Assembly (NCBI GenBank): GCA_963555985.3
Contig: OY820591.1
Coordinates: forward strand, 2,208,001 to 2,272,000
Direction: 5' to 3'
Length of the DNA: 64,000 bases
From: Dehalococcoidia bacterium
GTDB lineage: Bacteria; Chloroflexota; Dehalococcoidia; Bin125
Both the position numbers and the translations under genes were made by a program. Below the pieces are notes generated by a model, which was not told the DNA's origin, ran no database searches, and worked only from the letters and a program-made list of their open reading frames with translations. Numbering within the stretch: the stretch's first letter is position 1; each line of letters starts with the position of its first letter. Below, one piece after another: positions 34,476-47,993 of the stretch.

Positions 34476-36479
34476 CTAGAGCGGACGCGGCTCCGGCTCC
34501 GGGCGGCCTTCGATGCTGGGGTCTTCCGGGTCGATCCACGAGTCGAGGGCCTGGAGGCTCTCCGACTCGAAGGTATAGCCTTCGGTCTCCGACTTCAGCG
34601 CGGGGTGCAGGTAGTTCCAGGCGACTGTCGGCGAGACGGCGTTGTAGATGATGTGACGGCCGAACTGACCGTTCTCGATGATGAATTCCTGGACTTCACG
34701 CACAAGCCCGTTCGCGGTTTCGAAGTCGAATTCCTGGATTGCAGCGTCGAGCTTGGCATCGATCTCGTCTGGCTCGCTCACGTCCCAAAAGTTGCCCGGC
34801 GCGCCGGTCTTGAACGCTGCGGCCAAGTCCGCTCGTGCGTCCGGAACCGTCAGGTTAGGAATCCAGGAGAAGAACGTGGTGAACGTCTTGTTGAACCAAG
34901 CGGGGAAGATCTCACCATAGGTTTGGGTGACACCTTGGAACTGGTCGGTACCGAACGCCTGGTTGAACATCTGCGCGACGGCCTCGGTCGAGCCCGGCCG
35001 CGTGGCCTCATAGGCGTCTGAATTGACCCAGGGGATCTCGCCCACCTCCGCGCCGCCGGCCGCGCTCCAGAGTTCGTTGGCCTCTTGCAGGGCCGCATCG
35101 CGGTCGAGGCTATAGGCCGCGAAATCGGCGAGCTCTTCCTGCGGAATCGCCCAGGCCTCCTGCACCCAGGGCACGGGACCGCTGACCTTCCCCAGCCCTT
35201 GCGCGAGTTGCTGGATGAGCGCGCGCCGATCGATGGCGAGGTCGATCGCCTTCACCATGCGCGGGTCGGTCCAGGGTTCGAGGTTGCGATTGACGTAGGC
35301 GGCAATCGGGAAGGCGCTGCCTTTGAAGGTGAGGAAGGTCGAATCCGGTTCCTCGTCATGGATCGCCTGGAGCAGTTCCGCGCCCCCGGTCAGCATCGAG
35401 TCGACCTGCTTTTGCTCGAAGGCGATCCGGTAGGCCGTGGGATCCTCGAACGACTGGTTCCAGACCCAGTTGTGCGCCCGCGGGCCGGGGCTGTGGTAAT
35501 CCGGGTTGCGAACGGCGGAGATGCTCTCGCCGGGCAGCCACTCGGTGAGGATGTAGGGCCCGGTCCCGATCACCTTGTCGGCGGAGACGTTGACGGCCTC
35601 CGGTTCGATGGCAATGAGCAGTTCGGGCTGGCCCATGAGGTTGAACTCGTTGGCGAGACCCTGGAGGAATGCTGCATTGGGGCTACCCAAGTTGAGCGTC
35701 ATCGCGCCGGCATCGATGTCGATCGAGGCAACGCTGCTCCAGTAGCCCTTGCGACCGAAGGCGCCCTCCGAGCCGTCCTGCAACAAGCCGGCCTTCTGCC
35801 GTTCGATGTTCCAGGCGAGGTCTTCGGCGGTCAGCGGGCGCCCCGCGGTGGAGGCGGGATGGTCCGCGCCGGGGCCCTCGGCGTGCCATTTCACGCCCTC
35901 GCGGAGCTGCAACACGACGGTCTGGCCGTCGGGCGCCTCCCATCCGGAGGCGAGATCAGCGGCGAGTTCGCCCGAGTCCGGATTCTCGAATCGCAAGAGC
36001 TTCGATTGAATCCGGCCGAGCACCCGCAAGACCTCGCTGGACACGCTCTGGCTGGCGTCGGCGGAATCGAAGATGACGGCCGTGATATCCACGATCGTAC
36101 CGCCGTCGACGGGCGTCTTGTCGAAGCGGGAGACTGCGGCCTGCTGCTCGGCCTGTTCCTGCTCGGTCTGCTCCTGCGCCTCGGCCTGCTGGGCCTGCTG
36201 CTCGGCTTGCTGCTCCTGTTGCTCTTGCGTGACCTGCTGCTGCGACTGTTGTTGCTGCATGGCCTGCTGTTGCTGCTGCTCTTGCACGGCCTGCTGCTGT
36301 TGCTGATCCTGTTGTTGGACCTGCGTTACAGCCTGCTGCTGATCGTCGTCATCGTCGTCGCCGCAGCCCACCAGGGCCAGGCCGGCCGCGCCCACGCCGG
36401 CGCGTCCGCTCGCGTGCAGCATCGCGCGACGGGAGATCTTCCGGTCGCGCAGGCTCCTCCAGTAGTTCCGCTTGTTCAT
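34476..36479 (-). CDS. Family 5 ABC solute-binding lipoprotein with Tat signal and poly-Gln linker
   Basis: SRRAML twin-Arg, LVGC lipobox, DDDDDD then Q-rich tract, LREGVKWH, IGTGPY. Confidence 0.9.
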   Translation of the reverse strand: MNKRNYWRSLRDRKISRRAMLHASGRAGVGAAGLALVGCGDDDDDDQQQAVTQVQQQDQQQQQAVQEQQQQQAMQQQQSQQQVTQEQQEQQAEQQAQQAEAQEQTEQEQAEQQAAVSRFDKTPVDGGTIVDITAVIFDSADASQSVSSEVLRVLGRIQSKLLRFENPDSGELAADLASGWEAPDGQTVVLQLREGVKWHAEGPGADHPASTAGRPLTAEDLAWNIERQKAGLLQDGSEGAFGRKGYWSSVASIDIDAGAMTLNLGSPNAAFLQGLANEFNLMGQPELLIAIEPEAVNVSADKVIGTGPYILTEWLPGESISAVRNPDYHSPGPRAHNWVWNQSFEDPTAYRIAFEQKQVDSMLTGGAELLQAIHDEEPDSTFLTFKGSAFPIAAYVNRNLEPWTDPRMVKAIDLAIDRRALIQQLAQGLGKVSGPVPWVQEAWAIPQEELADFAAYSLDRDAALQEANELWSAAGGAEVGEIPWVNSDAYEATRPGSTEAVAQMFNQAFGTDQFQGVTQTYGEIFPAWFNKTFTTFFSWIPNLTVPDARADLAAAFKTGAPGNFWDVSEPDEIDAKLDAAIQEFDFETANGLVREVQEFIIENGQFGRHIIYNAVSPTVAWNYLHPALKSETEGYTFESESLQALDSWIDPEDPSIEGRPEPEPRPL

Positions 36480-36780
36480 TGGCTGCGCTCCCAGTTCGTG
36501 CGTGTGTCCGTCGAGACCCTTGCGGGTGGTTGCAGGCTACAGAGAACTGGACAGAGCGGTCAGAGAGTGCACTTGTTTGTTTGTTGTTTGCTCGAGTCGA
36601 CGCCATGGCGGCGGACTGGCCCGTCGTAGTGGTCGGGGGTGGACGGGAAAAACGGGCGCGGCGGGGGTTCAGGTGTTCGGCGAACTTTTTTTCCGGGGCG
36701 GCGGCGGGCGTGATCTACGGTGAAACACTGGAGATCGGGGCTCAGGTCGTTCAGGTTTTTTCAGGTTTCCTGAGAGCGGG

Positions 36781-36850
36781 GTGTTCGGGTTTGGACGGGT
36801 TTGGACGGGTTTGGTCGAATGTGGACGATGTTGGTTGAGTGTGGACGGGT
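36781..36850 (-). repeat. Seven-unit 10-bp tandem repeat at the distal end of the cassette array
   Basis: GTGTTCGGGT TTGGACGGGT TTGGACGGGT TTGGTCGAAT GTGGACGATG TTGGTTGAGT GTGGACGGGT. Confidence 0.85.
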
Positions 36851-36900
36851 CAGGCGGGGACCTGTTCGGTGGAACGCTCGGGTGGGACGCCCGATCTCGT
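36849..36900 (-). pseudogene. 3' remnant of a DUF2283 gene
   Basis: Minus strand encodes SGVPPERSTEQVP then GCCTGA, matching the ends ELATEQVPA* / ELSLEKVPA* of the intact copies. Confidence 0.6.
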
Positions 36901-36906
36901 CGTCGC

Positions 36907-37299
36907 TCAGCCGCTCTCGACACGGAGGCTGCCGATGCGCTCGAAGTGGCGGCGGTTGTTGGTGAGGAGGGTGAGGCCGTGTTGCAGCGCGGTCGCGGCG
37001 ATCAATGTGTCGAAGTTGCCGATGGGTTGCCCGCGCAACTGGAGGGACGCCTTCATCCGTCCGAAGATTTCGCCGGTTGCCGAATCTATCGGCAGTAACG
37101 TGAATGGCCCGACATACTCGAGCAACTCGGCTTTCGCCTGCTCCGCGTGCGGCGACCGATACGGACCCACGAACAGTTCCGCCATGCTGATCACGCTGAT
37201 CGCGATACCGGCGGGGAGCAACTCAAGAATGCGCACCCGCGCCGGAGTTGAACCTCTCAGCGCTTCGACGACCCAGTCTGTGTCGATCAGGTAACGCAC
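36907..37299 (-). CDS. vapC: PIN-domain toxin (VapC)
   Basis: YLIDTD, SVISMAEL..G, NFDTLIAATAL...LTLLTNNRRHFERI. Confidence 0.92.
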   Translation of the reverse strand: MRYLIDTDWVVEALRGSTPARVRILELLPAGIAISVISMAELFVGPYRSPHAEQAKAELLEYVGPFTLLPIDSATGEIFGRMKASLQLRGQPIGNFDTLIAATALQHGLTLLTNNRRHFERIGSLRVESG

Positions 37300-37302
37300 G
37301 AG

Positions 37303-37431
37303 CTAGTCGTCTGTTGACGGCCCGCAGCCGCAGTCTCGACGGAACGCCTCGATCAGGGTCGGGTCTTCGGCAAAGCGCTTGGCCCAGGCGGCCGCGGCGC
37401 GCTCCATTCGCTTGCGGGCCTCTTCCGACAC
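37303..37431 (-). pseudogene. Truncated antitoxin (C-terminal part only) upstream of vapC
   Basis: VSEEARKRMERAAAAWAKRFAEDPTLIEAF starts directly at the cassette repeat; no N-terminal DNA-binding domain. Confidence 0.45.
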
Positions 37432-37550
37432 TCAGCCTAGCGCGTTTGGGCGGCTCTTGGCGGGGGTGATTTCGTCGTCGGCGAGGTGGTCGATTTGGGT
37501 TTGGGGTGGTCGGATTTGGACGATTTTGGACGGGTTTGTTCGGGTGAGGC
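37416..37550 (-). repeat. Cassette boundary repeat (10-mers, methyltransferase-3'-end copy, TAGGCT, RBS)
   Basis: 37468-37494 GATTTCGTCGTCGGCGAGG-TGGTCGAT matches 41340-41387 of the methyltransferase gene with a 21-nt deletion. Confidence 0.85.
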
Positions 37551-37742
37551 GGGAACGTGCTCGACGGAGCATTCAGGCAGGACGCCGCGTTCGCGGGCGA
37601 ACTCGATCGTGAGGGCGACTAGGCCGCCATCGGCGTCCAGGTCGACCAGGTTCTCGTAGCCCAGATCCTGCGTCTCCTCAACCGGCGCGTCGGTGAAGAC
37701 GATCAGCAGGGTGTCCGTGTCCTCAAAGTAGGTGGCTTTCAT
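37437..37742 (-). CDS. DUF2283 family antitoxin-like protein, reading through into the repeat
   Basis: MKATYFEDTDTL...DLDADG.LVALTIEFARERG; the TGA after VPA found in paralogs is TCA here. Confidence 0.8.
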   Translation of the reverse strand: MKATYFEDTDTLLIVFTDAPVEETQDLGYENLVDLDADGGLVALTIEFARERGVLPECSVEHVPASPEQTRPKSSKSDHPKPKSTTSPTTKSPPPRAAQTR

Positions 37743-37805
37743 GGCTTGCACCCGCTATCGACGAAGGCTGTGCGCAGCGTTTCGCCCTCAGCGTATCCGC
37801 CTCGC

Positions 37806-38228
37806 TCAGGCCGAGGTGTTCCGCAACAGCGCCACGAACCCGGCCTGTGCGAAGTCTCGGTCGTAGGCCAGGGCGTCAGTGATGCCGCGCTCTTCCATCA
37901 CGAGGAAGCTGGCGCAATCGACGAGGCTCCAGGATTGGTCCAGCCGGTTCTCGTAGCGTTCAAGAGCTGAGCGAAACTGGCCGTCCGTCATGGGCACGAC
38001 CTCGATGTCTGCAGAGTTCAGGATCCGGCGCACGAGCGCCGAGGCGTCCTCGCGGCTGGCGGCGCCATCGTTTGAAAAGAAGGCCAGCACCTCTAGGAGC
38101 ACCATTTGCGAGGTCACGATGTCGTCGTCCTCATGCGTGACGAAGCGCGTCATGGCGTAGGGGTGCAGGTCATCATCCGGATCGAGCAGCGCAATCCAGA
38201 AACCGGAGTCGGCGAAGACGGCGCTCAC
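37806..38228 (-). CDS. vapC: PIN-domain toxin (VapC)
   Basis: VFADSGFWIALL...D..H, WSLVDCASFLVMEERGI..AL.YDRDFAQAGF; GTG overlaps the antitoxin stop. Confidence 0.92.
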   Translation of the reverse strand: MSAVFADSGFWIALLDPDDDLHPYAMTRFVTHEDDDIVTSQMVLLEVLAFFSNDGAASREDASALVRRILNSADIEVVPMTDGQFRSALERYENRLDQSWSLVDCASFLVMEERGITDALAYDRDFAQAGFVALLRNTSA

Positions 38229-38500
38229 TCGTCGTCGTCCCGGGAGAATTGATACATCCGCTGCCTGAAGGTGCGGGCATGATTGTGCTTCCAGCCCAAG
38301 CGCCGCTGCGTTGGCCATTGCTCCTGATCTTTGAGCAGCTCATGCATGTACTCCGGGTACCTCGCCAGTTCCTCTTCCGTCAGCGGGACATCGAGCTCTA
38401 TGTCGCCCACGCAGCCTTCGACCACGCCGGCGGCTGCCTTGGGGTCGATGGGCGTGAAGACTCCGTCGCGGAACACCACGCGGATTACCCGTGCAACCAT
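38225..38500 (-). CDS. Antitoxin, AF2212/DUF104-like
   Basis: VIRVVFRDGVFTP N-terminus; coupled to the downstream PIN gene; GGGAGG RBS. Confidence 0.75.
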   Translation of the reverse strand: MVARVIRVVFRDGVFTPIDPKAAAGVVEGCVGDIELDVPLTEEELARYPEYMHELLKDQEQWPTQRRLGWKHNHARTFRQRMYQFSRDDDE

Positions 38501-38502
38501 GA

Positions 38503-38560
38503 CGGCCTCCCTCTGACGCCCAGTCTACCGAACCAGGCGGCCCTCGATGGGGGCGATTGG
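38503..38560 (-). repeat. Cassette boundary repeat (short form)
   Basis: CCCTCGATGGGGGCGATT (38541-38558) vs CCCTCGACGGCGGCGATT at the methyltransferase 3' end; followed on the minus strand by TAGACT and GGGAGG. Confidence 0.7.
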
Positions 38561-39016
38561 TCAGGCGGGCGCCTCATCGTCGAGGAGATCATTGAGGATG
38601 ACGGTTGGCAAGTCTGGGATGCGACGGAAGTCGGCGTCGTTGGTGACGAAGAGATCACACCCGACGTGCAGCGCGGTGGCCGCGTGGAGCGCGTCGGGAA
38701 CGCTCAGGTTTGAATCGGCGCGCAGTCGAGCGGCATCACTCCAGAGTTCGCGGGTCATGGGGATCAGACTCACCTCGCGAGCATCTAACAGCGACAATAG
38801 GAGCCGTTCGAGCATTGCGTCTCCTTCTCGCAGCGGCTTGACCAGCGTCTCCAAGATGACGATCTCGCTGCTCACGATCACGAAGTCGCCTGCGCGCGCC
38901 CGCTGCCACATCGGTTCGAGCAGCGTGCGGAACGGTTCGACGCGCTCAACGCTGTAGATGAATCCGTTGCTGTCGAGATAGACGGAGCCGCTGGCCGGTA
39001 AGGTCAGCGTTCCCAT
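38561..39016 (-). CDS. vapC: PIN-domain toxin (VapC)
   Basis: VYLDSNGFIY..E, SEIVILETLVKP, PDALHAATAL..GCDLFVTNDADF. Confidence 0.92.
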   Translation of the reverse strand: MGTLTLPASGSVYLDSNGFIYSVERVEPFRTLLEPMWQRARAGDFVIVSSEIVILETLVKPLREGDAMLERLLLSLLDAREVSLIPMTRELWSDAARLRADSNLSVPDALHAATALHVGCDLFVTNDADFRRIPDLPTVILNDLLDDEAPA

Positions 39017-39234
39017 GACATCCGCTCTTCCTGGATGTAGGCGTCGACTTCGGCTGCCGTCTGGAACAGCCGATTGCCGGGCGCTTCGGCCAGGATGTCG
39101 ACGACGGACCGACGCGCTTCGGCCGGGGATCGCAGCACCACGACCTCAACGGTCTCGCCGGGTTCGAGTTCGGGACAGTCGAACTCGACCTTGCCGCCAG
39201 CCTGCACCGTGACTCGCTGGTGAATGGTCGGCAT
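39004..39234 (-). CDS. Antitoxin (AbrB/swapped-hairpin-like)
   Basis: VTVQAGGKVE..CPEL.PGETVEVVV...EVDAYIQEER.SWE; overlaps the PIN start; GGAGGAGG RBS. Confidence 0.82.
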   Translation of the reverse strand: MPTIHQRVTVQAGGKVEFDCPELEPGETVEVVVLRSPAEARRSVVDILAEAPGNRLFQTAAEVDAYIQEERMSWER

Positions 39235-39240
39235 TGCGGG

Positions 39241-39345
39241 ACCTCCTCCGAGCTCAGCCTACCGCGTTCCGGAGGCCCTTGGCGGGGGTGATTTCGGCTT
39301 CGGGATGTTCGGGTTTGGACGGTTTTGTTCGGGTGCGTTCGGGTC
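39241..39345 (-). repeat. Cassette boundary repeat
   Basis: Minus strand: 10-mers, then GAAATCACCCCCGCCAAGGG..GGAACGCGGTAGGCTGA..CGGAGGAGG. Confidence 0.85.
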
Positions 39346-39766
39346 AGGCGGGGACTTGCTCGGTGGCGAGTTCGGGCAGGATGTTGCGCTCGCGGGCGTG
39401 CTCGATCGTGAGGGCGACCAGATTGCCCTCGCAGTCGAACTCGAGCGAGGTTTGGTAATCGAGGTCGACATGGTCAATGGGGCCGTCGACGAATGGGTCG
39501 CCGAACTCGAACAGCAGCGTGTCCGTGTCTTTGAAGTAGATGCGATTCACAGTCGGAGACTTCCTGTCCCAGACCGCCCCACGGCTGACTTGCTCAGAGA
39601 CCCGCTGCTTCGCGAACTCGATGGTCAGCCCGACGGGGTACCCGTCGCAGTCCAGTTCCAACGACGCATTCTCGTCCAGGTCGACATGATCCAGCTCTTC
39701 CCCGACTGGTACGTCGCGAAAGACGAACATGAGAGTGTCCGTGTCCTCGGAGTAGATACGCTTCAC
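39344..39766 (-). CDS. Tandem double-DUF2283 protein
   Basis: Two repeats of RIY..DTDTL.F.F.D..V....DHVDLD...SLE.DC.G..V.LTIE.A. Confidence 0.82.
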   Translation of the reverse strand: MKRIYSEDTDTLMFVFRDVPVGEELDHVDLDENASLELDCDGYPVGLTIEFAKQRVSEQVSRGAVWDRKSPTVNRIYFKDTDTLLFEFGDPFVDGPIDHVDLDYQTSLEFDCEGNLVALTIEHARERNILPELATEQVPA

Positions 39767-39838
39767 GGCCTGAATCTCCCGTCGTCTTCATTGGCGGGAT
39801 TCACCCTATCAGATCAGAACTGGTGGTCGATAGCCGGT

Positions 39839-40004
39839 CCTCGGCGGCGATTTTGGGGTTGGGGTGTCCAGATTTGTCTGGATCTGTCTGGATTCGTCTG
39901 GATCTGGCTAGATTTTGGGGGTGTTTGTCGCGGAAATTCTTGCTGGGGTTGGGAACGTCCGGTGTTCGGGTTTGGACGGTTTTGTTCGGGTGCGTTCGGG
40001 GTGG
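39839..40004 (-). repeat. Cassette boundary repeat with two blocks of 10-mers
   Basis: CCTCGGCGGCGATTT; GTCCAGATTT GTCTGGATCT GTCTGGATTC GTCTGGATCT; GTTCGGGTTTGGACGGTTTTGTTCGGGTGCGTTCGGG identical to 39307-39343. Confidence 0.8.
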
Positions 40005-40490
40005 TCATGCCTCGCGGATGGCTCGGTTGAATGCTTCCCATTGCTCATCGGTCAGGTCGATTCGCACGAGTTGGCCGGGATTGAAGCGCTTCTGTTCGGG
40101 CTTGTTCAGGAACGTGTCGAGGTCGAACGGTTTCGACCACGCCTGGGTTTCACGGAGCTGCTCTACGCGGACGGTGATCCATTCGTCCTGGTCGTCGAAG
40201 CGTCCACTGCCCCGGAGCTCGACGTGACGGCCGGTCAGCCGCCGCATCTGCTCGGCCTGCGAGGGATCGAAGCGCAGGCTGACCTGACCGCCGCCGGCGT
40301 CGTGAAGTTGCGCGGTTCCGCTTTGCCAATCGACGTCCTTCAGCCACCCCGTCAGCAGGGCTTCCTCAATGTCGCCCGCCGGCTCCTCCTCCGAGACGGA
40401 GACGGTGACGACGCAGCCCTCTGTGAGGTCTAGGGATTCGAGCGGCGTCAGCACGCCGTTGGCGTATTGGGCGCGGAATTGGGTGGTCAC
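40005..40490 (-). CDS. AF2212/DUF104-like antitoxin domain fused to an uncharacterised beta-rich domain
   Basis: FRAQYANGVLTPLESLDLTEG.VVTVSV N-terminus; GGAGGAGG RBS before GTG. Confidence 0.75.
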   Translation of the reverse strand: MTTQFRAQYANGVLTPLESLDLTEGCVVTVSVSEEEPAGDIEEALLTGWLKDVDWQSGTAQLHDAGGGQVSLRFDPSQAEQMRRLTGRHVELRGSGRFDDQDEWITVRVEQLRETQAWSKPFDLDTFLNKPEQKRFNPGQLVRIDLTDEQWEAFNRAIREA

Positions 40491-40494
40491 TGGG

Positions 40495-40581
40495 GGCCTC
40501 CTCCGACGGTCAGCCTAGCGCGTTCCGGCGGCCCTTGGCGGGGGTGATTTTGGGTTTGGGGTGTTCGGATTTGGTCGGGTC
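40495..40581 (-). repeat. Cassette boundary repeat
   Basis: Minus strand CCCGACCAAATCCGAACACCCC..AAATCACCCCCGCCAAGGGCCGCCGGAACGCGCTAGGCTGACCGTCGGAGGAGG. Confidence 0.85.
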
Positions 40582-40777
40582 AGGCGGGGACTTTTTCGAG
40601 GGAGAGTTCGGGCAACACGCCACGCTCGCGGGCGAACTCGATCGTCAGGGCGACCAGATTGCCGTCCGCGTCGAGCTCCAGGAGTGTGTTCTCATCCAAG
40701 TCGCGCGTTTCGACGATCAGCGCGTCCGAGAGCGCGAGAAAGAGCGTATCCGTATCCTCGAAGTAGGTGGCTTTCAT
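40580..40777 (-). CDS. DUF2283 family antitoxin-like protein
   Basis: MKATYFEDTDTL.L.LSD..IVETRDLDENTLLELDADGNLVALTIE. Confidence 0.85.
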   Translation of the reverse strand: MKATYFEDTDTLFLALSDALIVETRDLDENTLLELDADGNLVALTIEFARERGVLPELSLEKVPA

Positions 40778-40917
40778 GGACGTGCGACTCCCCACCGCAA
40801 CGCTTTGATCTGCGTTGATGTAAGTATAGCAATGTGGAGGACCAAATTGATCGGCTTGCCGGGCGCCGAAATCGCCCGCCAAGCCTGATGCAGCCGCCGG
40901 CCCGTTGGCAGCGGCGT

Positions 40918-41154
40918 TTACGGCCTGAAATTGCGGTCGAAAAAGGCGTTGAGCACCGTCTCCCGGTCGGGCAGGAGCACCACGCGCAGATACCGCCCGC
41001 CGAATTCCGGCACCGCCCCCCAGCGGCTGATGCGGCCGTTGGACTGAACGAGCTCTCGCTCAGGATTGGAGAGCACCCGCTCGATCCACTCGTCCGTGAT
41101 CTGCCGCCTATCTGGAAACTGCCGCCGCCAGTCGAAGTACGGAGTGGTTTTCAT
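40918..41154 (-). CDS. Small RelE/BrnT-like (DUF4258-like) toxin, the usual partner of DUF2283
   Basis: EWIERVL.NP....Q.NGRI.RWG..PE.GGRYLRVVLL.D.ETV.NAFFDRNF. Confidence 0.75.
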   Translation of the reverse strand: MKTTPYFDWRRQFPDRRQITDEWIERVLSNPERELVQSNGRISRWGAVPEFGGRYLRVVLLPDRETVLNAFFDRNFRP

Positions 41155-41259
41155 AGAGTCTTTCTCAGAACCGCTCCAGCGCCATGCCTGAGGTTGTTAG
41201 GCCGAGCACCTGCTTTCAAGCAGAACTCCGGGTTTGCGCGGGGCAGGCGTAAGGCCGGG

Positions 41260-41291
41260 CGAGATACCCGCGGCAAGCGCGGGTATGACGG
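41260..41291. repeat. REP-like palindrome, family B
   Basis: GAGATACCCGCGGCAAGCGCGGGTATGACGG, near reverse complement of 11295-11324. Confidence 0.8.
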
Positions 41292-41309
41292 AGTTGGGGG
41301 CGGGCGCCA

Positions 41310-44300
41310 TCATCGGGATACCCGCCCCTCGACGGCGGCGATTTCGTCGTCGGTGAGGCCGTAGAGGTTGTAGACGAGCTGGTCGATCTCTTGCTCGGCG
41401 TCGGTGTCGGGAGTGGCGGCATTGAGGATGCGGTCGACCAACTGGACGAAGGGCTGTTGCTCCTCTTTGCTGGGCTTCGGAAGAGGCAACCTCTCGACGT
41501 AGACTCTCTTCCAGCGAAGCGTGCCCATGCCTGAGGTGGGCGCAATTTGCCTGAGATGCCAGTGCATCAGGCGAGAGTTCAGTAGCGCACACAGATACTT
41601 GAGGTTCTCGCCTGTCATCAGAAAGGTCGTTGCTTCGGGATACGTCTTGCTGTCGTCGTAAGCGAAGCGTCCGCGATCCACCAGCTCGATCCACAGCAAC
41701 TTGGGCTTGGCAAAGTCCTCGTAATAAGCGCAGCTTCGCAAGTTGTAGTAGGTGAGGCCCTGATCTTGCCGTCTCTCGACTTGCGGCAGGAAGCCGTCGA
41801 GGTGATCTTTGACCGCTGGGTAATCGTCGATGTTAATCGGCGGCACGTCGTCATAGCCGTTATGGGTGTCGATCAACCACTTGCCCGCCCACTCAGCTCG
41901 ATATCGCTGAATATCCCGGCCACGTAGCACCGGCTTGATGATCTCGTCCGAGTTTGGGTCTTCCGCAATCAGCGCGTCCCGCGTGGGAGTGTCGATGATG
42001 AACGCTTTGTTGTAGCCCGTGAGCACTCCGCGGTTGATCTTTACATCCCACTCGCTGAGCGGCGTACCGCGATCGAGCATCTTGTCCATCACGCTCCACT
42101 CGGTGTGGGAGAGGACGCTCCAGGGGGCGTCGCCGTTGGGCCGGGTTTGGCCCCAGTGTTGGTCGGCGGGCGGGATTTGCTTGTCTGGCAGGGCGTCCAG
42201 GTCGACCGAGGGGAACGGGTCCCCGCTCGGGGGCGGGGAACCGGCGGAGTGTGAGCGGCCGGTGCGGAGCAGCAGGACGCCGCTGTCGACGATGGCGCTG
42301 TCGAAGACGTCTTTGCCCAAGTCGAGCCAGCGCAGCGGGGTGTGGCGCTGGGCGAAGTGGCGGCGCGTCTTCTTGCCGTACTCGGCGCGGAGCCAACTGT
42401 TGGAGCTGATGTAGGCCATCAGGCCGCCGTCGCGCCGCAGCAGTTGGCAGCCGCGCTCGAAGAAGAGTTGGTAGATGTCGCCGCTGCGGACAAAGGTCTC
42501 GAAGCCGCAGTCGGCGTAGCGTTTGCCCAGCTTGCCGCTGTCTTTCTGGAGTTGGATGTAGGGCGGGTTGGCGATCACGATGTCGAAGCCGCCGTCGGCG
42601 AAGACTTCGGCGAATTCGACGCGCCAGTCGAGGGCGTTGCCGCTCTGCGCGAAGTGGCTGAGCCGCTCGCGAATGTCTGCTTCGACCGCTTCGATTGACT
42701 GACGTAGCGCTTGCTTGCGGTCGCCGATGTACTCGGTCATGAACTGGCGCTTGAGCTCGCGCAGTCGGTCGATTCGAGTCCCCTCATATCCGAGCACGCC
42801 CTGCTGTCCGGTCTCGCTCGGGTCGGGACCGAGCAGGCTGTCGCCCTGGACGATCTTGAAGTCGAGGTTGGGCAGCGGCTCGGGTTGGTCGCCCTCGTAG
42901 TCGATGGCGAGCGAGAGCCAGAGCCGGAGCATGGCGATGTTGGTGGCGAAGCCGTCGATGTCGACGCCGTAGAGGTTGCGGCGGATGATTTCGAGTTTGA
43001 GTTCGTAGAGCGACTTGGGGTCGTGGGTGACGTTGAAGAGGGTCTGCTGGAGTTCGACCAGTTCGTGCATCATGCCGAGCAGGTAGGCGCCGGAGCCGCA
43101 GGCGGGGTCGACGACGGTGACATCGGCGAGGGCGTTGGAGATCGCGCGGGCGTCGGGGATGCGGATGCGGGCGGTGTCGCGGCGGTCGACGAAGGCGGCG
43201 ACGGCGTCGGCGTCGAGCGGGTCCCCGCGTGAAGCGGGGACTGGGAGGCGGGCTTCGAGGTAGCCCTTGAGCGCCTCGCGGCACATGAAGGAGACGACTG
43301 GGCGGGGGGTGTAGTAGGCGCCGGAGTCGTGGCGTCCGGTGACGAGTTCTTCGAAGACCATGCCGAGCATTTCGGGGTCGACGGCGACCTCGATCTCCAG
43401 CGGGGTCGATTCGGAGACGGTGAAGTAGAAGCGGTCGAAGAGTTCGCTGAGGACGGGCAGGATCGCGTCGTCGGGGACGAACAGGTTGTCGCGCTGGTCC
43501 AGCTCGGTCGGCTGGAAGAGGCCGCCGTTGAGGAAGGGCACGTCGCCGATCAGGATGTCGAGGCCGTGTCTGAGGTCGCGCGAGTCGGGATTGTTCAGTC
43601 CTTCGAAGAAGAGGAAGCTGAGGCGGTCGCGGTAGAAGTTGTCGTGCTGCTCGTGAGCGAGGTAGTCGTTCTTGAGGGCGTTGAGATAGTCGCGGTCGCC
43701 TCTGTAGGCGAGCCAGCCCTTGCGCGAGAGGAACTGGACGAACATCAGCCGGTTCAGCAGGGTCAGCACGAAGCGGCGGCGCTGCTCGCGTTCGCGCTCG
43801 GAGAAGCCGGAGACCAGTTCGACCGCCTGATCGAAGAGGCGCTTGTACTCGCGGTAGAAGCGGCGGTTGAGCTCTTCGGTGTCGAGCGCGTCGAGCCAGG
43901 CGTCGAGCAGGCCGTCGAAGTTCTGCGGCTTGCCGTTGGATTGCATCCAGTCGAGGCGATTGGCGAGCGAGAGTTGTTCGAGGATGTCGATATGGGCGCG
44001 GTGCGGCTTGGCGGGATCGAGCTCGCGGATCAGGGAGACGCTGCCGAGCACGTCGCGGTCGGGGTCGCGTTTGTGTTCGCGGCGATGGACGAAGGCGAGC
44101 GTGAGCAGTCCGTCGCCGCTGTGGAAGAGGACGACGGTGGGGATTCCGAAGCGTTTGTTGAGCTCGCGGGTGAACTGCGCGTACTTGCCGCGCGGGTAGC
44201 GGGCGCCGTCCAGTTCGACGGCGGCGAAGAGGAAGCTCCTGGCGAGGCCGCTGTCGAACTCGTCAGCCGGGAACATGGATCGTTCCAGTCCGGCCTCGAT

Positions 44301-44558
44301 TTCCTGATCGGTGAGCTGGAAGATCAGGCGGACGGAGCGAGCGGCGTCGCGGAATTCCCGCTCGGCCTTGGTGTCCGGGTTGTCGGCGGGAAATTGGTCC
44401 AGGAAGTCCGAGACGTCGCCACTCTGGCCTTCGAGTGTGCGTTCGCTGCGATAGCCGAGGGCGCCGAGCAATCCTTCGGCGTCGCGGGCGAACTGGCCGC
44501 CGCAGTCGCGGAGGGTCTGCTTGATGCGTTCGCGGGTCGCTACCTGATGATCAGCCAT
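41310..44558 (-). CDS. Eco57I/Type IIG-like N6-adenine restriction-modification methyltransferase with a TaqI-C-like TRD
   Basis: PFLNGGLF, GAYYTPR, VVDPACGSGAYL, IANPPY, YLCALLNS, EIDQLVYNLYGLTDDEI. Confidence 0.92.
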   Translation of the reverse strand: MADHQVATRERIKQTLRDCGGQFARDAEGLLGALGYRSERTLEGQSGDVSDFLDQFPADNPDTKAEREFRDAARSVRLIFQLTDQEIEAGLERSMFPADEFDSGLARSFLFAAVELDGARYPRGKYAQFTRELNKRFGIPTVVLFHSGDGLLTLAFVHRREHKRDPDRDVLGSVSLIRELDPAKPHRAHIDILEQLSLANRLDWMQSNGKPQNFDGLLDAWLDALDTEELNRRFYREYKRLFDQAVELVSGFSEREREQRRRFVLTLLNRLMFVQFLSRKGWLAYRGDRDYLNALKNDYLAHEQHDNFYRDRLSFLFFEGLNNPDSRDLRHGLDILIGDVPFLNGGLFQPTELDQRDNLFVPDDAILPVLSELFDRFYFTVSESTPLEIEVAVDPEMLGMVFEELVTGRHDSGAYYTPRPVVSFMCREALKGYLEARLPVPASRGDPLDADAVAAFVDRRDTARIRIPDARAISNALADVTVVDPACGSGAYLLGMMHELVELQQTLFNVTHDPKSLYELKLEIIRRNLYGVDIDGFATNIAMLRLWLSLAIDYEGDQPEPLPNLDFKIVQGDSLLGPDPSETGQQGVLGYEGTRIDRLRELKRQFMTEYIGDRKQALRQSIEAVEADIRERLSHFAQSGNALDWRVEFAEVFADGGFDIVIANPPYIQLQKDSGKLGKRYADCGFETFVRSGDIYQLFFERGCQLLRRDGGLMAYISSNSWLRAEYGKKTRRHFAQRHTPLRWLDLGKDVFDSAIVDSGVLLLRTGRSHSAGSPPPSGDPFPSVDLDALPDKQIPPADQHWGQTRPNGDAPWSVLSHTEWSVMDKMLDRGTPLSEWDVKINRGVLTGYNKAFIIDTPTRDALIAEDPNSDEIIKPVLRGRDIQRYRAEWAGKWLIDTHNGYDDVPPINIDDYPAVKDHLDGFLPQVERRQDQGLTYYNLRSCAYYEDFAKPKLLWIELVDRGRFAYDDSKTYPEATTFLMTGENLKYLCALLNSRLMHWHLRQIAPTSGMGTLRWKRVYVERLPLPKPSKEEQQPFVQLVDRILNAATPDTDAEQEIDQLVYNLYGLTDDEIAAVEGRVSR

Positions 44559-47500
44559 GTCACGAGCTCGAAGTCTGTTGGGGCGCCCGGGTGCTCCGAG
44601 GCTTTGGGCAGGACGGCGTCGCGGGAGCCGCCGCGGGCTACGCTACTCGCTGCGGCGGAGGCTTCGGCCTGGCGGATGTGGGCGAGCACGTTGGCTATCA
44701 GCTGGTCATAGCGGCCCAGCTCCTGGCCGTGCTTGGTTTCGAGGTTGAAGGCGTCGCAGAGGTCTTGCACGGGTTTGTCAACGCCGAGCGCGGCGCGCTC
44801 GAAGGTCTCCAGCACTTGGCGCGCGTTGGCGGCGCCGAAGCGGATCGTTCCGTCGTCCTGGATCAGGACGAGGAAGAAGGGATGCAGCGGGCTGACGCTT
44901 CGCTGCCGCGCGTTCGTTTCGGCCGCGCGCTGCTTCAAGAGGAAGAGCACGCTCGCGCCGGGGCCGTGCTCGGGGTTGCGGGCGAGGGCGTAGACGCCGT
45001 TGGGGGTCGCTTCCAGTTCTGCGCGCTTCTGCTCGAGGAACTGCTTGAGTTGGGCGAAGAAGTAGTCCATCGAGAAGTCGCTCATCACGACGGTGTCGGA
45101 GAGTTCGTCCAAGTCGGGCACTTCTTCGCGCAGTCGTTGCAGTTGCCGGTCGCGGAAGTTGAGTTCGAGTTGCGCGCCCGCTTCCAGTTCGCGCTCGTTG
45201 AGGAGGTCGTCGCTGCCGCTGGCGGCGGTGTCGGCCAGCGCCATGCGCGCGAAGACGCGGTTCTCCAGCTTGAGGTAGGCGTCCATGTCCTTGGTCGGCC
45301 AGTAGTTGATCATGCGGACTTCGGCGTTACGGCTGCCGATCCGGTCGATCCGCCCGAAACGCTGGATCAGCCGTACCGGATTCCAGTGAATGTCGTAGTT
45401 GAGGACGGTGTCGCAATCCTGGAGGTTCTGACCCTCGGAGATGCAGTCGGTCGCGATCAGGAGGTCGATATCCGGTTCGGAACTGTCGCCGGTTCGATTG
45501 CGGGCGTTGGGCGCGAAGTCGGTCAGGATGGCGTTGAAGTCCCCTGTTCCACGGCTATCGCGCGCGCTGTCGCCGGAGACCATCGCCATCCGCAGACCCA
45601 GTTGCTTGGCGTCGGCTGCGAGCTGTTCGTAGAGGTACTCGGCGGTGTCTTTGAAGGTGGTGAAGATCAGCAGTTTGCGGTTCGGGTTGCCGTCCAGGTC
45701 GGCGCTGGGCTTCGCCGCCCGCTGATGGAGCGCCTCTCGCAGTTCGCGCAGCTTGCCGTCGCGCGCGGGGCTGATGTCCCGTACGAGCTCGAGGGCGGCG
45801 GCGAGCGTGTCCCGGTCTTTGCGGATGTCCTTGCTCCAGCGGGGGAGGTCGAGCTCTCTCAGGTGGTAGGGGTTGCGCGCGCGGTTGATCAGGAAATCGT
45901 CGTCCTCCTCGTCCTCATCGGGCAGATAGTCGCTCTGGATGTCCTCGTCGCGCGCTTGTCGTTCGTAGCGCTCGATCTTGTCCAGCAGCGCTTCCATCTT
46001 GTCGATCGTGCGCTTCAGGGTGAGTTGCAGTGAACGCGGAGAGCTTTCGAGCCGCTTCAGGAAGTTGGTCAGGATCATCTGAACGAGGAAGCGCTCGCGG
46101 TCCTTCTGATTGAAGTTGCGCCGCTTGCGCTCCGCCTCGAGTTCCCGCTGCCGCTCCGGGTCGTCCAGATAGTCGGAAGGGCGGTAGATCGAGAGCTCGA
46201 ACGCGCCGATCCGCGTTGCCAGCTGTTCATAAGAGAGCGCGCCGTCCAAATCGGTCGCGGGGTAGCGGTTGAGCGGCTTCGCGTGTCGAGGGAACTGGCC
46301 GATCCGATCCATTTCGGCCGCGTAGAACCGCGTGATCTGTCGCCGCGAGCGGGCAATCGAAACAGCGTCAAGCAGCCGCAGAAAATCGGCGCCGAGCCGC
46401 TCCAGCAGTTGCGCCTTGTCGGATTTGCCGCCGCGCTGTTCTTCCTCCCACTGCTTGAACGCGCGCTGAGCCGCGCCCAGGACGCGCCCCATACTGCCGA
46501 TTCCGAGCTCGCTCTGAAAGTAGGCCTCGTTCTTCTCGGTCATCAGGTAGATCTGGTTGCGGAGATCGAGCAGAGACGTGTTGACCGGGGTCGCCGAGAG
46601 CATCAGGACCTTGGTCCTGGAGCCGTCCTTGATGACGTTCTCGAGCAGGCGTTTGTAGCGCGCGCCTCCGTCATTGCGGAAGTTGTGCGACTCGTCAATG
46701 ACGATGAGGTCGTAGGCGCCCCAGTTGAAATTGGCGAGGTCGATGCCGCCCACCTCGCCCGTGTCTCTTGAGAGATCGGTGTGGGAGAGCAGCGTGTAAC
46801 CGAAGCGATCTTCGGCAAAGGGATTGTCCCGGCGCCGAAAGTGCAAGGGGTACAGCGCCCAGTTCTCCCGCAGCTTACGCGGGCAGAGCACGAGCACATT
46901 CTTGTTTTGGAGTTCGTAGTACTTGATCACCGCCAGCGCGGTGTAGGTCTTGCCCAAGCCCACGCTGTCGGCCAGGATGCAGCCGTGGTGCTGTTGCAGG
47001 CGGTTGATCACGCTCCTCACGCCATCCTGCTGGAACTCGTAGAGCGCGTTCCAGATCACTTTCTCGACTAGATGCGTGTCCTTCAATGGCTGATCGTCGA
47101 GCTCGGAGTTCACTCTGCTCTCGAGCAGCTCGAAGAGCGACTTGAAGTAGACAAATTCGGGGGAGTAGTCCCTGCCAAGTCGATCGAGCGCATTGAGCAC
47201 ATCCGGCTTGACGTCTTCGGTGAGGCGTTCGTCGCCCCACAGCTGGTCGAACCACTCGCGAAGAGCGGACAGCGTGTGCTCATCGGTGACTGCCAGATTG
47301 ATCTCGAGATTCGGCCTCTGGCTGCCGCCAAGCCCTCGCCTGGTGAAGTTCGAACTGCCGACGACGCCGGCGCCGTCGGTGAGGTACATCTTGCCGTGCA
47401 GAAAGTTCGAGCGCCTGATAGATCGCACCGCGACGGCGCCGCTCTTGAACCATTCGGCGCAGGCGCGGGCCAGACCCTTCTGATGCAGCGTCTGCATGGG

Positions 47501-47749
47501 CGTAAGCCCACGCTCGGTGAGGTAAAAGGCCTGTTCGTCCTTCGCACCGGGATCGAGGTCGTCCACTGAATAGGGGTCGCCGAAGAGGAAGCGGGTATCG
47601 TTGAGGTTCTCCAGTTCCTCGGCCAGGAGCGCGTAGCCGTAGATGCTGAAGTATGCCGATACGATCCGGAACGCGCTCGAACGATCGAGCTGCGCGCTCA
47701 AGTACTCAGAGACCTTGCGAGTGCGATTATCCAGAATGACGTCCTGCAT
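44540..47749 (-). CDS. PLD-nuclease + SNF2-type helicase fusion
   Basis: HGKMY...VGSSNFT (HKD-like), LADSVGLGKT, DESHNFR, LSATPVN, ISEGQNLQ, IHWNPVRLIQRFGRIDR; overlaps the methyltransferase start. Confidence 0.92.
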   Translation of the reverse strand: MQDVILDNRTRKVSEYLSAQLDRSSAFRIVSAYFSIYGYALLAEELENLNDTRFLFGDPYSVDDLDPGAKDEQAFYLTERGLTPMQTLHQKGLARACAEWFKSGAVAVRSIRRSNFLHGKMYLTDGAGVVGSSNFTRRGLGGSQRPNLEINLAVTDEHTLSALREWFDQLWGDERLTEDVKPDVLNALDRLGRDYSPEFVYFKSLFELLESRVNSELDDQPLKDTHLVEKVIWNALYEFQQDGVRSVINRLQQHHGCILADSVGLGKTYTALAVIKYYELQNKNVLVLCPRKLRENWALYPLHFRRRDNPFAEDRFGYTLLSHTDLSRDTGEVGGIDLANFNWGAYDLIVIDESHNFRNDGGARYKRLLENVIKDGSRTKVLMLSATPVNTSLLDLRNQIYLMTEKNEAYFQSELGIGSMGRVLGAAQRAFKQWEEEQRGGKSDKAQLLERLGADFLRLLDAVSIARSRRQITRFYAAEMDRIGQFPRHAKPLNRYPATDLDGALSYEQLATRIGAFELSIYRPSDYLDDPERQRELEAERKRRNFNQKDRERFLVQMILTNFLKRLESSPRSLQLTLKRTIDKMEALLDKIERYERQARDEDIQSDYLPDEDEEDDDFLINRARNPYHLRELDLPRWSKDIRKDRDTLAAALELVRDISPARDGKLRELREALHQRAAKPSADLDGNPNRKLLIFTTFKDTAEYLYEQLAADAKQLGLRMAMVSGDSARDSRGTGDFNAILTDFAPNARNRTGDSSEPDIDLLIATDCISEGQNLQDCDTVLNYDIHWNPVRLIQRFGRIDRIGSRNAEVRMINYWPTKDMDAYLKLENRVFARMALADTAASGSDDLLNERELEAGAQLELNFRDRQLQRLREEVPDLDELSDTVVMSDFSMDYFFAQLKQFLEQKRAELEATPNGVYALARNPEHGPGASVLFLLKQRAAETNARQRSVSPLHPFFLVLIQDDGTIRFGAANARQVLETFERAALGVDKPVQDLCDAFNLETKHGQELGRYDQLIANVLAHIRQAEASAAASSVARGGSRDAVLPKASEHPGAPTDFELVTWLIIR

Positions 47750-47993
47750 CCGCAATCCCCTCTTGGCGCCTGCATGGAGCCGCCGATATCGTCGAAAGCG
47801 TAGCGAGCCCTTGCCTGCTCCTTCCCAGCATCGGCCTTGGGGTTGAGAAGATGCGGCCCAGCGCGCCGCTAATCACGGCCAAGCCCCCCACCCAACCGCA
47901 ACTTCCCTGCCAACCCGTTAACCTGAACTCGAGTCCGCTCTGGCTACCGTATCCCTCACGCCGGACCCGTCATTCCCCGGAAAGGACACCCTC

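Follow-up and report, generated by a model that had tools for sequence, protein, structure and literature searches.

Defence genes cluster in islands, and to our knowledge it is mostly unexplained how small cassettes without mobility genes reach them. In integrons and CALINs (attC clusters without an integrase), a repeated element separates compact, co-oriented cassettes, and toxin-antitoxin and defence genes are frequent among these. Integrative elements accrete in tandem at the 3′ ends of tRNA and protein genes; the replacement 3′ end keeps the target whole, and the displaced ends are left behind as direct repeats. Shufflon-type invertible specificity switching is known for Type I and Type IIG genes. 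Here, we investigated an array of small toxin-antitoxin-type genes that follows a Type IIG methyltransferase gene in a Dehalococcoidia bacterium (genome G000; 3.33 Mb, 65% G+C, 11 contigs). The window, meaning the whole 64,000-nt stretch that was analysed, is C1:2208001-2272000 of this genome, and positions below are window positions unless a contig or locus is named. Five of the cassette junctions are decayed in-frame copies of the last 10–21 codons and stop of a Type IIG gene, and the Type IIG tail is a recurrent place of cargo flanked by tail copies.

By analogy, the array may be a variation on two known phenomena, insertion with long target duplication and the tail-end repeats of the pneumococcal tvr locus. 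In the excerpted text of PMC2853133, inserts of the first kind are flanked by direct repeats of more than 30 bp, well beyond the size of transposon duplications, and of variable length, carry no mobility gene, and include restriction genes; the same excerpts mention tandem accretion for tRNA targets. In the excerpts of the tvr report (Nucleic Acids Res 2018, PMC6265443), the SpnIV Type I locus has ~70-bp direct “tail end repeats” behind its specificity segments, a circle is excised and reintegrated, and some excision at longer repeats needed neither a recombinase nor recA. The window shows the repeat features of long target duplication and lacks the defining features of integrons and of the tvr locus. 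In line with the original prediction, which knew of no such described system, a literature search (supplements not covered) found no description of an array in which Type IIG tail copies lie one after another between toxin-antitoxin or defence cassettes.

The original prediction had also proposed a recurring boundary module that matches the last codons of the methyltransferase, and we recovered it as five in-frame, stop-terminated relics. In full, the real methyltransferase tail reads ...LYGLTDDEIAAVEGRVSR-stop. A repeat search of the array gave a 60-nt connector in three copies at 75–88% identity (family D8), a 43-nt family of four copies with the true methyltransferase end among them (D9), and a 23-nt family of five copies (D11). 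The tail and the connectors that carry the relics are as follows.

41310..41387, minus strand: real methyltransferase 3′ tail, the putative scar template, IDQLVYNLYGLTDDEIAAVEGRVSR-stop; matches profile A1 (the last ~56 residues) at E 5e-22
40491..40579, minus strand: connector 1, with phased repeats, relic c40 (40510-40551, KITPAKGRRNALG-stop), GGAGGAGG and a start codon; families D8, D10 and D11; unstructured, fold z +1.6
39767..40004, minus strand: connector 2, with phased CGAACA repeats, CCAGAC repeats and relic c39b (39801-39854, KIAAEDRLS...); families D1 and D14
39235..39343, minus strand: connector 3, with phased repeats, relic c39a (39254-39295, EITPAKGLRNAVG-stop), GGAGGAGG and ATG; families D8 and D10; fold z +1.7
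38501..38560, minus strand: connector 4, with relic c38 (38525-38557, IAPIEGRLVR-stop) directly after a PIN stop and without phased repeats; family D11
37432..37545, minus strand: connector 5, with phased repeats and the longest relic, c37 (37432-37494, IDHLADDEITPAKSRPNALG-stop); families D8 and D9

Translated in the methyltransferase frame, none of the five relics is interrupted, and each terminates where the real gene does or close by. Relic c39b is one codon shorter than the real tail, and c37 differs from it by a 21-nt in-frame gap, the deletion that had been noted for the copy at 37468-37494. The 16/18 identity proposed for 38541-38558 is correct by eye. An inverted copy near 40850-40883 did not hold up; it is a 25-nt pair at 76% (I7), at chance level like many of the weak pairs listed. 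Each relic is followed by GGAGGAGG or a variant of it and then by the start codon of an unrelated gene, and the homology between connectors extends up to that start codon.

We compared the relics with shuffled controls and with other gene ends, and the resemblance to the tail stood. Of 2000 composition shuffles, none aligned to the real tail as well as c37, c38 or c39b did, 12 equalled or exceeded c40, and 36 equalled or exceeded c39a. We then took 3101 gene ends (the last 90+20 nt each, from crude gene calls) and ranked them against each relic. For c37, the methyltransferase end is the best non-self match (23, with the next best at 17; mean 8.3, sd 2.1); it ties for best non-self with c38, is third for c39a and c39b, and is 25th for c40. 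A hidden Markov model of the boundary module gave full-length matches in the genome only within the array. A scan of the whole genome for gene ends with a repeat close by was dominated by tandem paralogues.

The same architecture was found in other genomes. The relatives retrieved via the methyltransferase are Chloroflexota/Dehalococcoidia metagenome-assembled genomes. In a DNA search of 60 relatives, the methyltransferase tail matched four times inside a 3.5-kb stretch of G057, which belongs to another family. Profile A1 was run on 401 genomes of the class (94 matching at E ≤0.05) and 401 of the phylum (65 at E ≤1e-4), two samples of their groups that partly overlap, and loci with more than one A1 match were inspected. 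Tail copies lie beside cargo in at least four lineages (G000, G057, G054 and G591) with G473 as a probable fifth, and two further genomes (G662 and G732) have tandem tails only. The proposal that the tail is a recurrent insertion site is supported in so far as cargo is repeatedly found between direct tail copies, in G057, G054, G591 and G473 besides the window; its integron-like, site-specific part is not, given the lack of a recombinase, the lack of hairpins and the variable edges of the repeats.

In G057 (locus L023), a 973-amino-acid Type IIG gene is followed by HicB(/HicA), HicB/HicA, DUF433/DUF5615 and other DNA, with tail copies of 148 nt (89%), 172 nt (90%) and 73 nt (85%) between the cargo. 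The row ends in a 202-amino-acid relic (130 nt, 91.5%) that abuts a housekeeping gene. Over its last ~75 residues, this relic shares ~90% identity with the resident gene, whereas the specificity part diverges; displacement of a different allele would leave such a pattern. Three of the tail copies have the same 25 nt behind the stop, yet the cargo that follows differs, with the joint ~5 nt ahead of the start codon. The ratio of nonsynonymous to synonymous differences (pN/pS) between the G057 copies is 0.32–0.72, from small counts of ~15–30 differences per pair, which hints that part of the divergence arose inside working genes.

The G054 array (L033) has two relics that are 94% alike over 97 nt and 77–78% like the resident tail, with repeats of 64–97 nt and a 30-nt hairpin before each of the two relics. 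Its cargo consists of HicAB, a DUF6650 gene and its neighbours, DarT with a macro-domain protein, and PIN; the relics flank the DUF6650-type genes and precede the DarT/macro-domain genes. At L033 5281-5894 (G054:C26), a relic with DarT/macro-domain cargo apparently sits inside a major facilitator superfamily (MFS) transporter-like gene, and the fused frame ends in the methyltransferase tail. In G591 (L043), a 147-nt repeat (88%) surrounds a single 459-amino-acid gene; the ATG of this gene and the stop codon of the tail copy upstream of it overlap, which fits a native junction imported whole with its cargo. In G473 (L044), direct tail copies bracket DUF2188 and DUF4062 cargo, as judged from the layout of open reading frames and tail motifs only. 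Orphan tails lie just upstream of cargo in G319 (HicB), G179 (AAA_21/AAA_15 and DUF4276) and G068 (small genes and DUF2283). In G018 (L035), the methyltransferase has lost its middle, and what is left is an N-terminal piece and a 62-amino-acid tail, which still precedes the accessory gene. Furthermore, a toxin-antitoxin pair lies between methyltransferase and helicase in G014, G020 and L002, so that small cargo behind the methyltransferase is a habit of the family.

The two tandem-only genomes hold tail repeats without cargo. In G662 (L041, 5600-6760 of G662:C1), a 123-nt unit made of the tail and a repetitive extragenic palindromic (REP) hairpin is repeated ~3.4 times, and the last codons and stop of the methyltransferase lie inside the hairpin. 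This unit adjoins a Y1-transposase-like (RAYT-like) gene, matched at E 6e-4, below the Pfam cut-off, and flanked by further hairpins. In G732 (L042), a 272-nt tandem unit at 95% consists of a ~100-nt REP-like piece and 170 nt of tail.

In the window, the island is flanked by housekeeping genes, namely an ATP-binding cassette (ABC) substrate-binding gene ending at 36479 and two thymidylate-kinase-like (tmk) genes from 47994. Between these, all on the minus strand, lie the HKD/PLD-SNF2 helicase, the Type IIG methyltransferase and 11 small genes. The row of small, co-oriented toxin-antitoxin-type genes originally described downstream of the methyltransferase is thus present, with 11 genes and a DUF2283 relic by our count. 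All 11 are compact and share one orientation, as integron and CALIN cassettes do. From the methyltransferase onwards, they are DUF4258-like, DUF2283, AF2212-like, double DUF2283, 76 amino acids plus PIN, 91 amino acids plus PIN, DUF2283, and 42 amino acids plus PIN. The features outside the five connectors are listed below.

44540..47755, minus strand: HKD/PLD and SNF2 helicase, the methyltransferase partner; Pfam PLDc_2, SNF2-rel_dom and Helicase_C; PADLOC C3a139 candidate family ‘HKD+Snf2’, E 7.6e-108; DrmD-like matches
41310..44558, minus strand: Type IIG methyltransferase; Pfam Eco57I 2.1e-34 and TaqI_C 3.2e-16; PADLOC REase_MTase_IIG 9.6e-155
41258..41304, no strand assigned: REP-like hairpin just after the methyltransferase stop; generic and high-copy, with 92–100% matches at many places in genomes of the family
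40918..41154, minus strand: DUF4258-like small toxin-like gene, the first cassette; Pfam DUF4258 E 0.0017, below the Pfam cut-off; homologues beside DUF2283 in L027, L012 and L013
40580..40882, minus strand: DUF2283 gene; Pfam DUF2283 3.8e-12, residues 37-84; likely start at the ATG near 40776
40005..40490, minus strand: AF2212-like (DUF104-type) gene, 161 amino acids; Pfam AF2212-like 2.7e-07; homologues at ~70% nucleotide identity in L014, L015 and L030
39344..39766, minus strand: double DUF2283 gene; Pfam DUF2283 over two stretches; homologues at 85–87% nucleotide identity in G035 and G030
38561..39234, minus strand: overlapping genes of a 76-amino-acid antitoxin-like protein and a PIN toxin; Pfam PIN 1.8e-19; pair kept at 63–66% nucleotide identity in L016 and L018-L020
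37806..38500, minus strand: 91-amino-acid antitoxin-like protein and PIN toxin; Pfam PIN 1.7e-12; PIN homologous to the PIN between methyltransferase and helicase in L024 and L002
37437..37751, minus strand: DUF2283 gene, read-through frame; Pfam DUF2283 9.1e-10, residues 5-52; homology to relatives ends at 37544-37547
36907..37431, minus strand: 42-amino-acid antitoxin-like protein and PIN toxin; Pfam PIN 2.4e-14; pair 65% identical in nucleotides to L032 from 37427 on
36768..36906, minus strand: end of the array, with a DUF2283 3′-end relic (~36850-36880) and the last phased-repeat block, then the upstream region of the ABC substrate-binding gene; families D1, D6 and D12

The methyltransferase is one long protein with an Eco57I methylase and a C-terminal TaqI_C specificity domain, as is typical of Type IIG enzymes, and its HKD-SNF2 partner may be the candidate supplier of nuclease activity. 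Its TaqI_C domain is the sole match in the genome, so there is no silent specificity copy. Each of the three PIN genes has a small gene before it, and the DUF4258-like gene adjoins DUF2283. From adjacent or overlapping placement and a toxin domain, these pairs fit the layout of Type II toxin-antitoxin systems (VapBC-like and DUF4258/DUF2283) with putative toxins. Homology to cassettes of relatives ends at gene borders. In the third DUF2283 gene, the TGA stop of its paralogues is TCA (37545-37547), and the frame runs on for ~36 codons through the phased repeats and tail relic of connector 5. The ABC substrate-binding gene has a long Gln-rich CAG/CTG-type stretch near its N-terminus (36145-36330; family D3), where metagenome contig depth peaks.

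The boundary module as originally described stands in its tail relic, shared GGAGGAGG and start codon. Its 10-bp phased, C/A-rich repeats do not belong to it, as at least three phased units occur at 36 loci of the genome (0, 1 and 1 after each of three shuffles), of which only 4 are inside the array. By a crude gene caller, the repeats are oriented as the next downstream gene at 33 of the 36 loci, mostly in short intergenic spacers. We had considered them as recombinase arm sites and dropped the idea in view of this number and orientation; they could act as an unstructured leader, as bent DNA or as a protein-binding array. The unit is CGAACA, CGTCCA or TGAACA plus 4 nt (for example, C1:192489-192528, 2186676-2186868 and 2749973-2750002), and some loci run on into CCTGAACA repeats and a CCCGTTTTTCCCG motif. 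Within the window, the repeats lie at 36778-36854, 37503-37559, 39302-39348 and 39959-40005, and a ~40-nt run in connector 2 differs from the copy at 39303-39345 by no more than 4 mismatches.

A -10 box of its own for each cassette was not supported either, as a consensus scan of the array found 0 sigma-70-like promoters (shuffle mean 0.7), with the proviso that Chloroflexota promoters may differ. No coding-strand terminator-like sites were found in the array. The array is probably co-transcribed with the helicase-methyltransferase system. An Rfam search gave no family at gathering score (one hit, at E 0.85). Four connectors were folded on both strands, and none folded better than its shuffles (z +0.1 to +2.8 in seven of eight folds and -0.25 in one). 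This poor folding fits open spacers before ribosome sites and not hairpin recombination sites.

The REP-like element behind the methyltransferase stop reads ATACCCGCG...CGCGGGTAT. Its 35-nt core occurs 70 times in the genome if 4 mismatches are allowed and 95 times if 6 are, its metagenome contig depth peaks at 224–1831, and copies in the family often form local clusters 110–220 nt apart (G036 and G027). G000 has no match to the Y1 transposase (PF01797). When the connector core was searched with mismatches, another dispersed repeat also came up; it has the core GACATCTCCCCCCGCAAGGG, occurs at ~20 places in the genome (for example, C1:3440, 112893 and 336784) and is unrelated to the array.

We also looked at four metagenome runs of one study. 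The stretch is present there as short contigs of even depth, and the longest pieces have 0 differing letters in X1 and X2. Unfortunately, the contigs only tile the array and none spans it in any of the four runs, so the array could in principle be an assembly chimera. In X1 and X3, contigs join 36768 to 41258/41259 (sides of 26 nt), a further joint links 36407 and 41258 (37 nt), and all end in the high-copy REP element. The joint from 36768 could stem from a variant that lacks the array or simply from a further copy of the REP element, and reads were placed at 90% likeness, so other origins are possible. With the REP element high in copy and the sides short, neither these joints nor those between DUF2283 paralogues were used as evidence. 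In the nearest genus, tmk-side synteny on the island side is kept in none of the five loci compared, and G057 is without a close relative among the 61 genomes searched.

Set against the published long target duplications, the loci share several traits: repeats of variable length (73–172 nt in G057, 147 nt in G591, 64–97 nt in G054, and 23–63 nt and decayed in the window), a restriction-modification context, and inserts without a mobility gene; some of the published repeats also overlap a gene’s 3′ end (excerpts of PMC2853133). The loci differ in that the tail of the restriction gene is here the repeated target and toxin-antitoxin or defence genes are the insert, in the serial events with up to five scars, and in cargo repeats that are 77–91% alike, whereas those in the same excerpts are near-identical. 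The window shares with the tvr locus its direct tail-end repeats and toxin-antitoxin genes inside a restriction locus. However, tvr, as excerpted in PMC6265443, shuffles specificity segments with its own recombinase, and the window has neither a silent segment nor a recombinase; its repeats bracket toxin-antitoxin cargo, and its system is Type IIG where tvr is Type I. Like integrons and CALINs, the window has compact co-oriented cassettes separated by a repeated element. As for differences, it has no IntI, its connectors lack a hairpin by folding (attC sites are imperfect hairpins of ~60–140 nt), and its repeat is a coding piece of the anchoring gene with variable edges. Tandemly accreting integrative elements bring their own integrase and use fixed att cores, whereas the units of 0.5–2.4 kb seen here lack a recombinase.

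Our preferred explanation, which we hold tentatively and at somewhat under an even chance, is that new cargo is added by recombination, guided by homology, within the conserved tail block, that the old tail remains behind as a scar, and that addictive cargo then resists loss. The last 170–190 nt are a conserved block in this gene family, behind the variable specificity domain. Homology between a related tail block on incoming DNA, with its own downstream cargo, and the resident block would drive recombination, with no dedicated recombinase involved, possibly by one-sided homologous exchange or by integration of a circle. The new cargo would land directly behind the working gene. The displaced old tail would stay joined to the old cargo and keep supplying its ribosome site, giving the observed order of a scar, a ribosome-binding site common to the junctions and the start codon of the next cassette. 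As addictive cargo would resist deletion, the row would grow and older scars would shrink and drift; restriction gene complexes, too, are reportedly resistant to replacement, the subject of one paper. The scars in G000 would be old, and the generic, oriented, unstructured C/A-rich repeat would since have spread over their upstream parts; the arrays of G057, G591 and G054 would be younger replicates. The route of recombination, the direction of growth and the role of addiction are what we infer here. The cargo-flanking copies at 77–91%, the difference between the G054 relics and their resident tail, and the pN/pS of 0.32–0.72 in G057 suggest that cargo arrives with a foreign tail copy and that the resident tail is left as the scar. 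The reduced methyltransferase of G018, the lack of a nearby recombinase, the array free of coding-strand terminator-like sites and the end of cassette homology at gene borders also speak for homology-guided capture.

A more far-reaching form of this explanation, which we regard as doubtful, would make the tail block a portable, recombinase-free attachment site. DNA with a block and cargo would be captured behind the gene, and two-block cassettes would be excised, exchanged between cells and captured again in a Chloroflexota-wide cassette market.

Several observations weigh against homology-guided capture. The joints are precise, both in G057, where the same 25 nt meet different cargo, and in the window, where homology runs up to the start codons, and a site-specific step or gene conversion explains this more easily than plain homologous exchange. 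In G662 and G732, near-identical (~95%) tail copies stand in tandem and enclose either no cargo or just a REP-like insert, which indicates that in-situ duplication also occurs. Three of the connectors are part of one 183-nt repeat with the upstream DUF2283 gene, so that local duplication explains part of the pattern. The bottom strand of the G057 repeat folds better than all but 1 of 200 shuffles. In a scan of 65 genomes, the connector core had three matches in G000 and was absent from the 64 other genomes of the family except for one match with 3 mismatches. Finally, we found no two strains that differ by the presence of a cassette, and hence observed no insertion event directly.

The rival that survives best, though we consider it unlikely, is in-situ insertion with long target duplication, in which a local duplication of the tail block takes up cargo between its copies, all of them derived from the resident gene. 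Staggered breaks, slippage or unequal exchange could do this, possibly aided by REP-type hairpins behind the stop. The tandem units of G662, beside their Y1-transposase-like gene, and of G732 speak for such a process, as do the REP-like element directly after the methyltransferase stop in the window, the hairpin before both G054 relics, and the target duplications described in the excerpts of PMC2853133, which are long, vary in length and flank inserted restriction genes with no mobility gene. However, the cargo-flanking repeats are not near-identical, the G054 relics are far more alike mutually than to the resident tail, the 202-amino-acid relic of G057 has a different specificity part, and the pN/pS of the relics is below 1.

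An ordinary local history, in which one old relic linked to a DUF2283 gene and its spacer spread by local duplication or gene conversion and the tail is no special landing site, is in our view quite improbable. The 183-nt repeat (D2; also D5) starts inside the DUF2283 genes and takes in three connectors, which share derived features (a TPAKG..NALG tail and two extra codons), and the generic phased repeats and the connector core confined to this genome within the family would also agree with a local origin. However, c38 and c39b are separate relic types that are nearer to the resident tail and are without DUF2283 linkage, and the connectors (75–88%) are more alike than the adjoining DUF2283 genes (64–73%). 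Furthermore, the architecture recurs with unrelated cargo and nucleotide sequence in other Chloroflexota families and classes.

It is likewise rather improbable that the tail copies are tyrosine recombinase sites of an integron- or tvr-like excision and reintegration system, with the enzyme acting in trans or lost and the window a frozen remnant of a mobile or phase-variable locus. In favour of this is L002 (12634-14395), where a convergent silent copy of the C-terminal specificity part lies behind the gene, beside a tyrosine recombinase (PF00589, 2.2e-15) and an AF2212-like/PIN pair. Convergent tail pairs occur in eight further genomes (G024:C1:1007186, G200:C1:2477088, G204:C1:1153382, G172:C1:560675, G259:C1:1241656, G223:C13:75733, G693:C1:991731 and G672:C9:8786). 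The precise joints at the ribosome site, the weak fold signal of the G057 repeat, and the direct repeats, circles and toxin-antitoxin homologues of tvr (excerpts of PMC6265443) point the same way. The convergent copies are likely an invertible specificity switch of the Type IIG and HKD-SNF2 system. They resemble the window in gene family and locus, with partial C-terminal copies downstream and often a toxin-antitoxin pair, and differ in being convergent, comprising the whole specificity domain and lying, in L002, beside a recombinase, whereas the window copies are direct, 30–60 nt long and without a specificity domain.

Against site-specific recombination stands the absence of a recombinase in the window, as originally noted; the genome has PF00589 matches only at C1:962692 and C1:1448131 and a PF00239 match only at C1:1052777. 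No PF00589 match was found near the G057 or G054 arrays, and no mobility gene in the inserts of the window, G057 or G054. In L002, the repeat shared by active and silent copies (174 nt, 80%) precedes the specificity domain, and a comparison of the 3′ ends yielded nothing, so we rejected a recombinase site at that 3′ end. The single TaqI_C domain of G000 and connectors less structured than their shuffles also count against it. Because recombinases are far away, the repeats differ in their left edge (~50 to 600 nt before the stop), and the L002 repeat is where it is, a dedicated site-specific system behind the array is unlikely. We reject an integron, as no recombinase is near, the connectors have no hairpin by folding and the repeat edges are variable.

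If homology-guided capture is right, the tail of a restriction gene, used as a repeated seam, would be a concrete route by which defence islands grow without integrases, and turnover of specificity-gene alleles would be linked to a ratchet-like build-up of addictive genes. Tail relics may also be usable as markers for cargo of unassigned function beside Type IIG genes. Were the tail block a portable attachment site, addictive cargo would shield the restriction gene from loss, and restriction genes would be the anchors of an integron-like, homology-driven cassette market in Chloroflexota and perhaps more widely.

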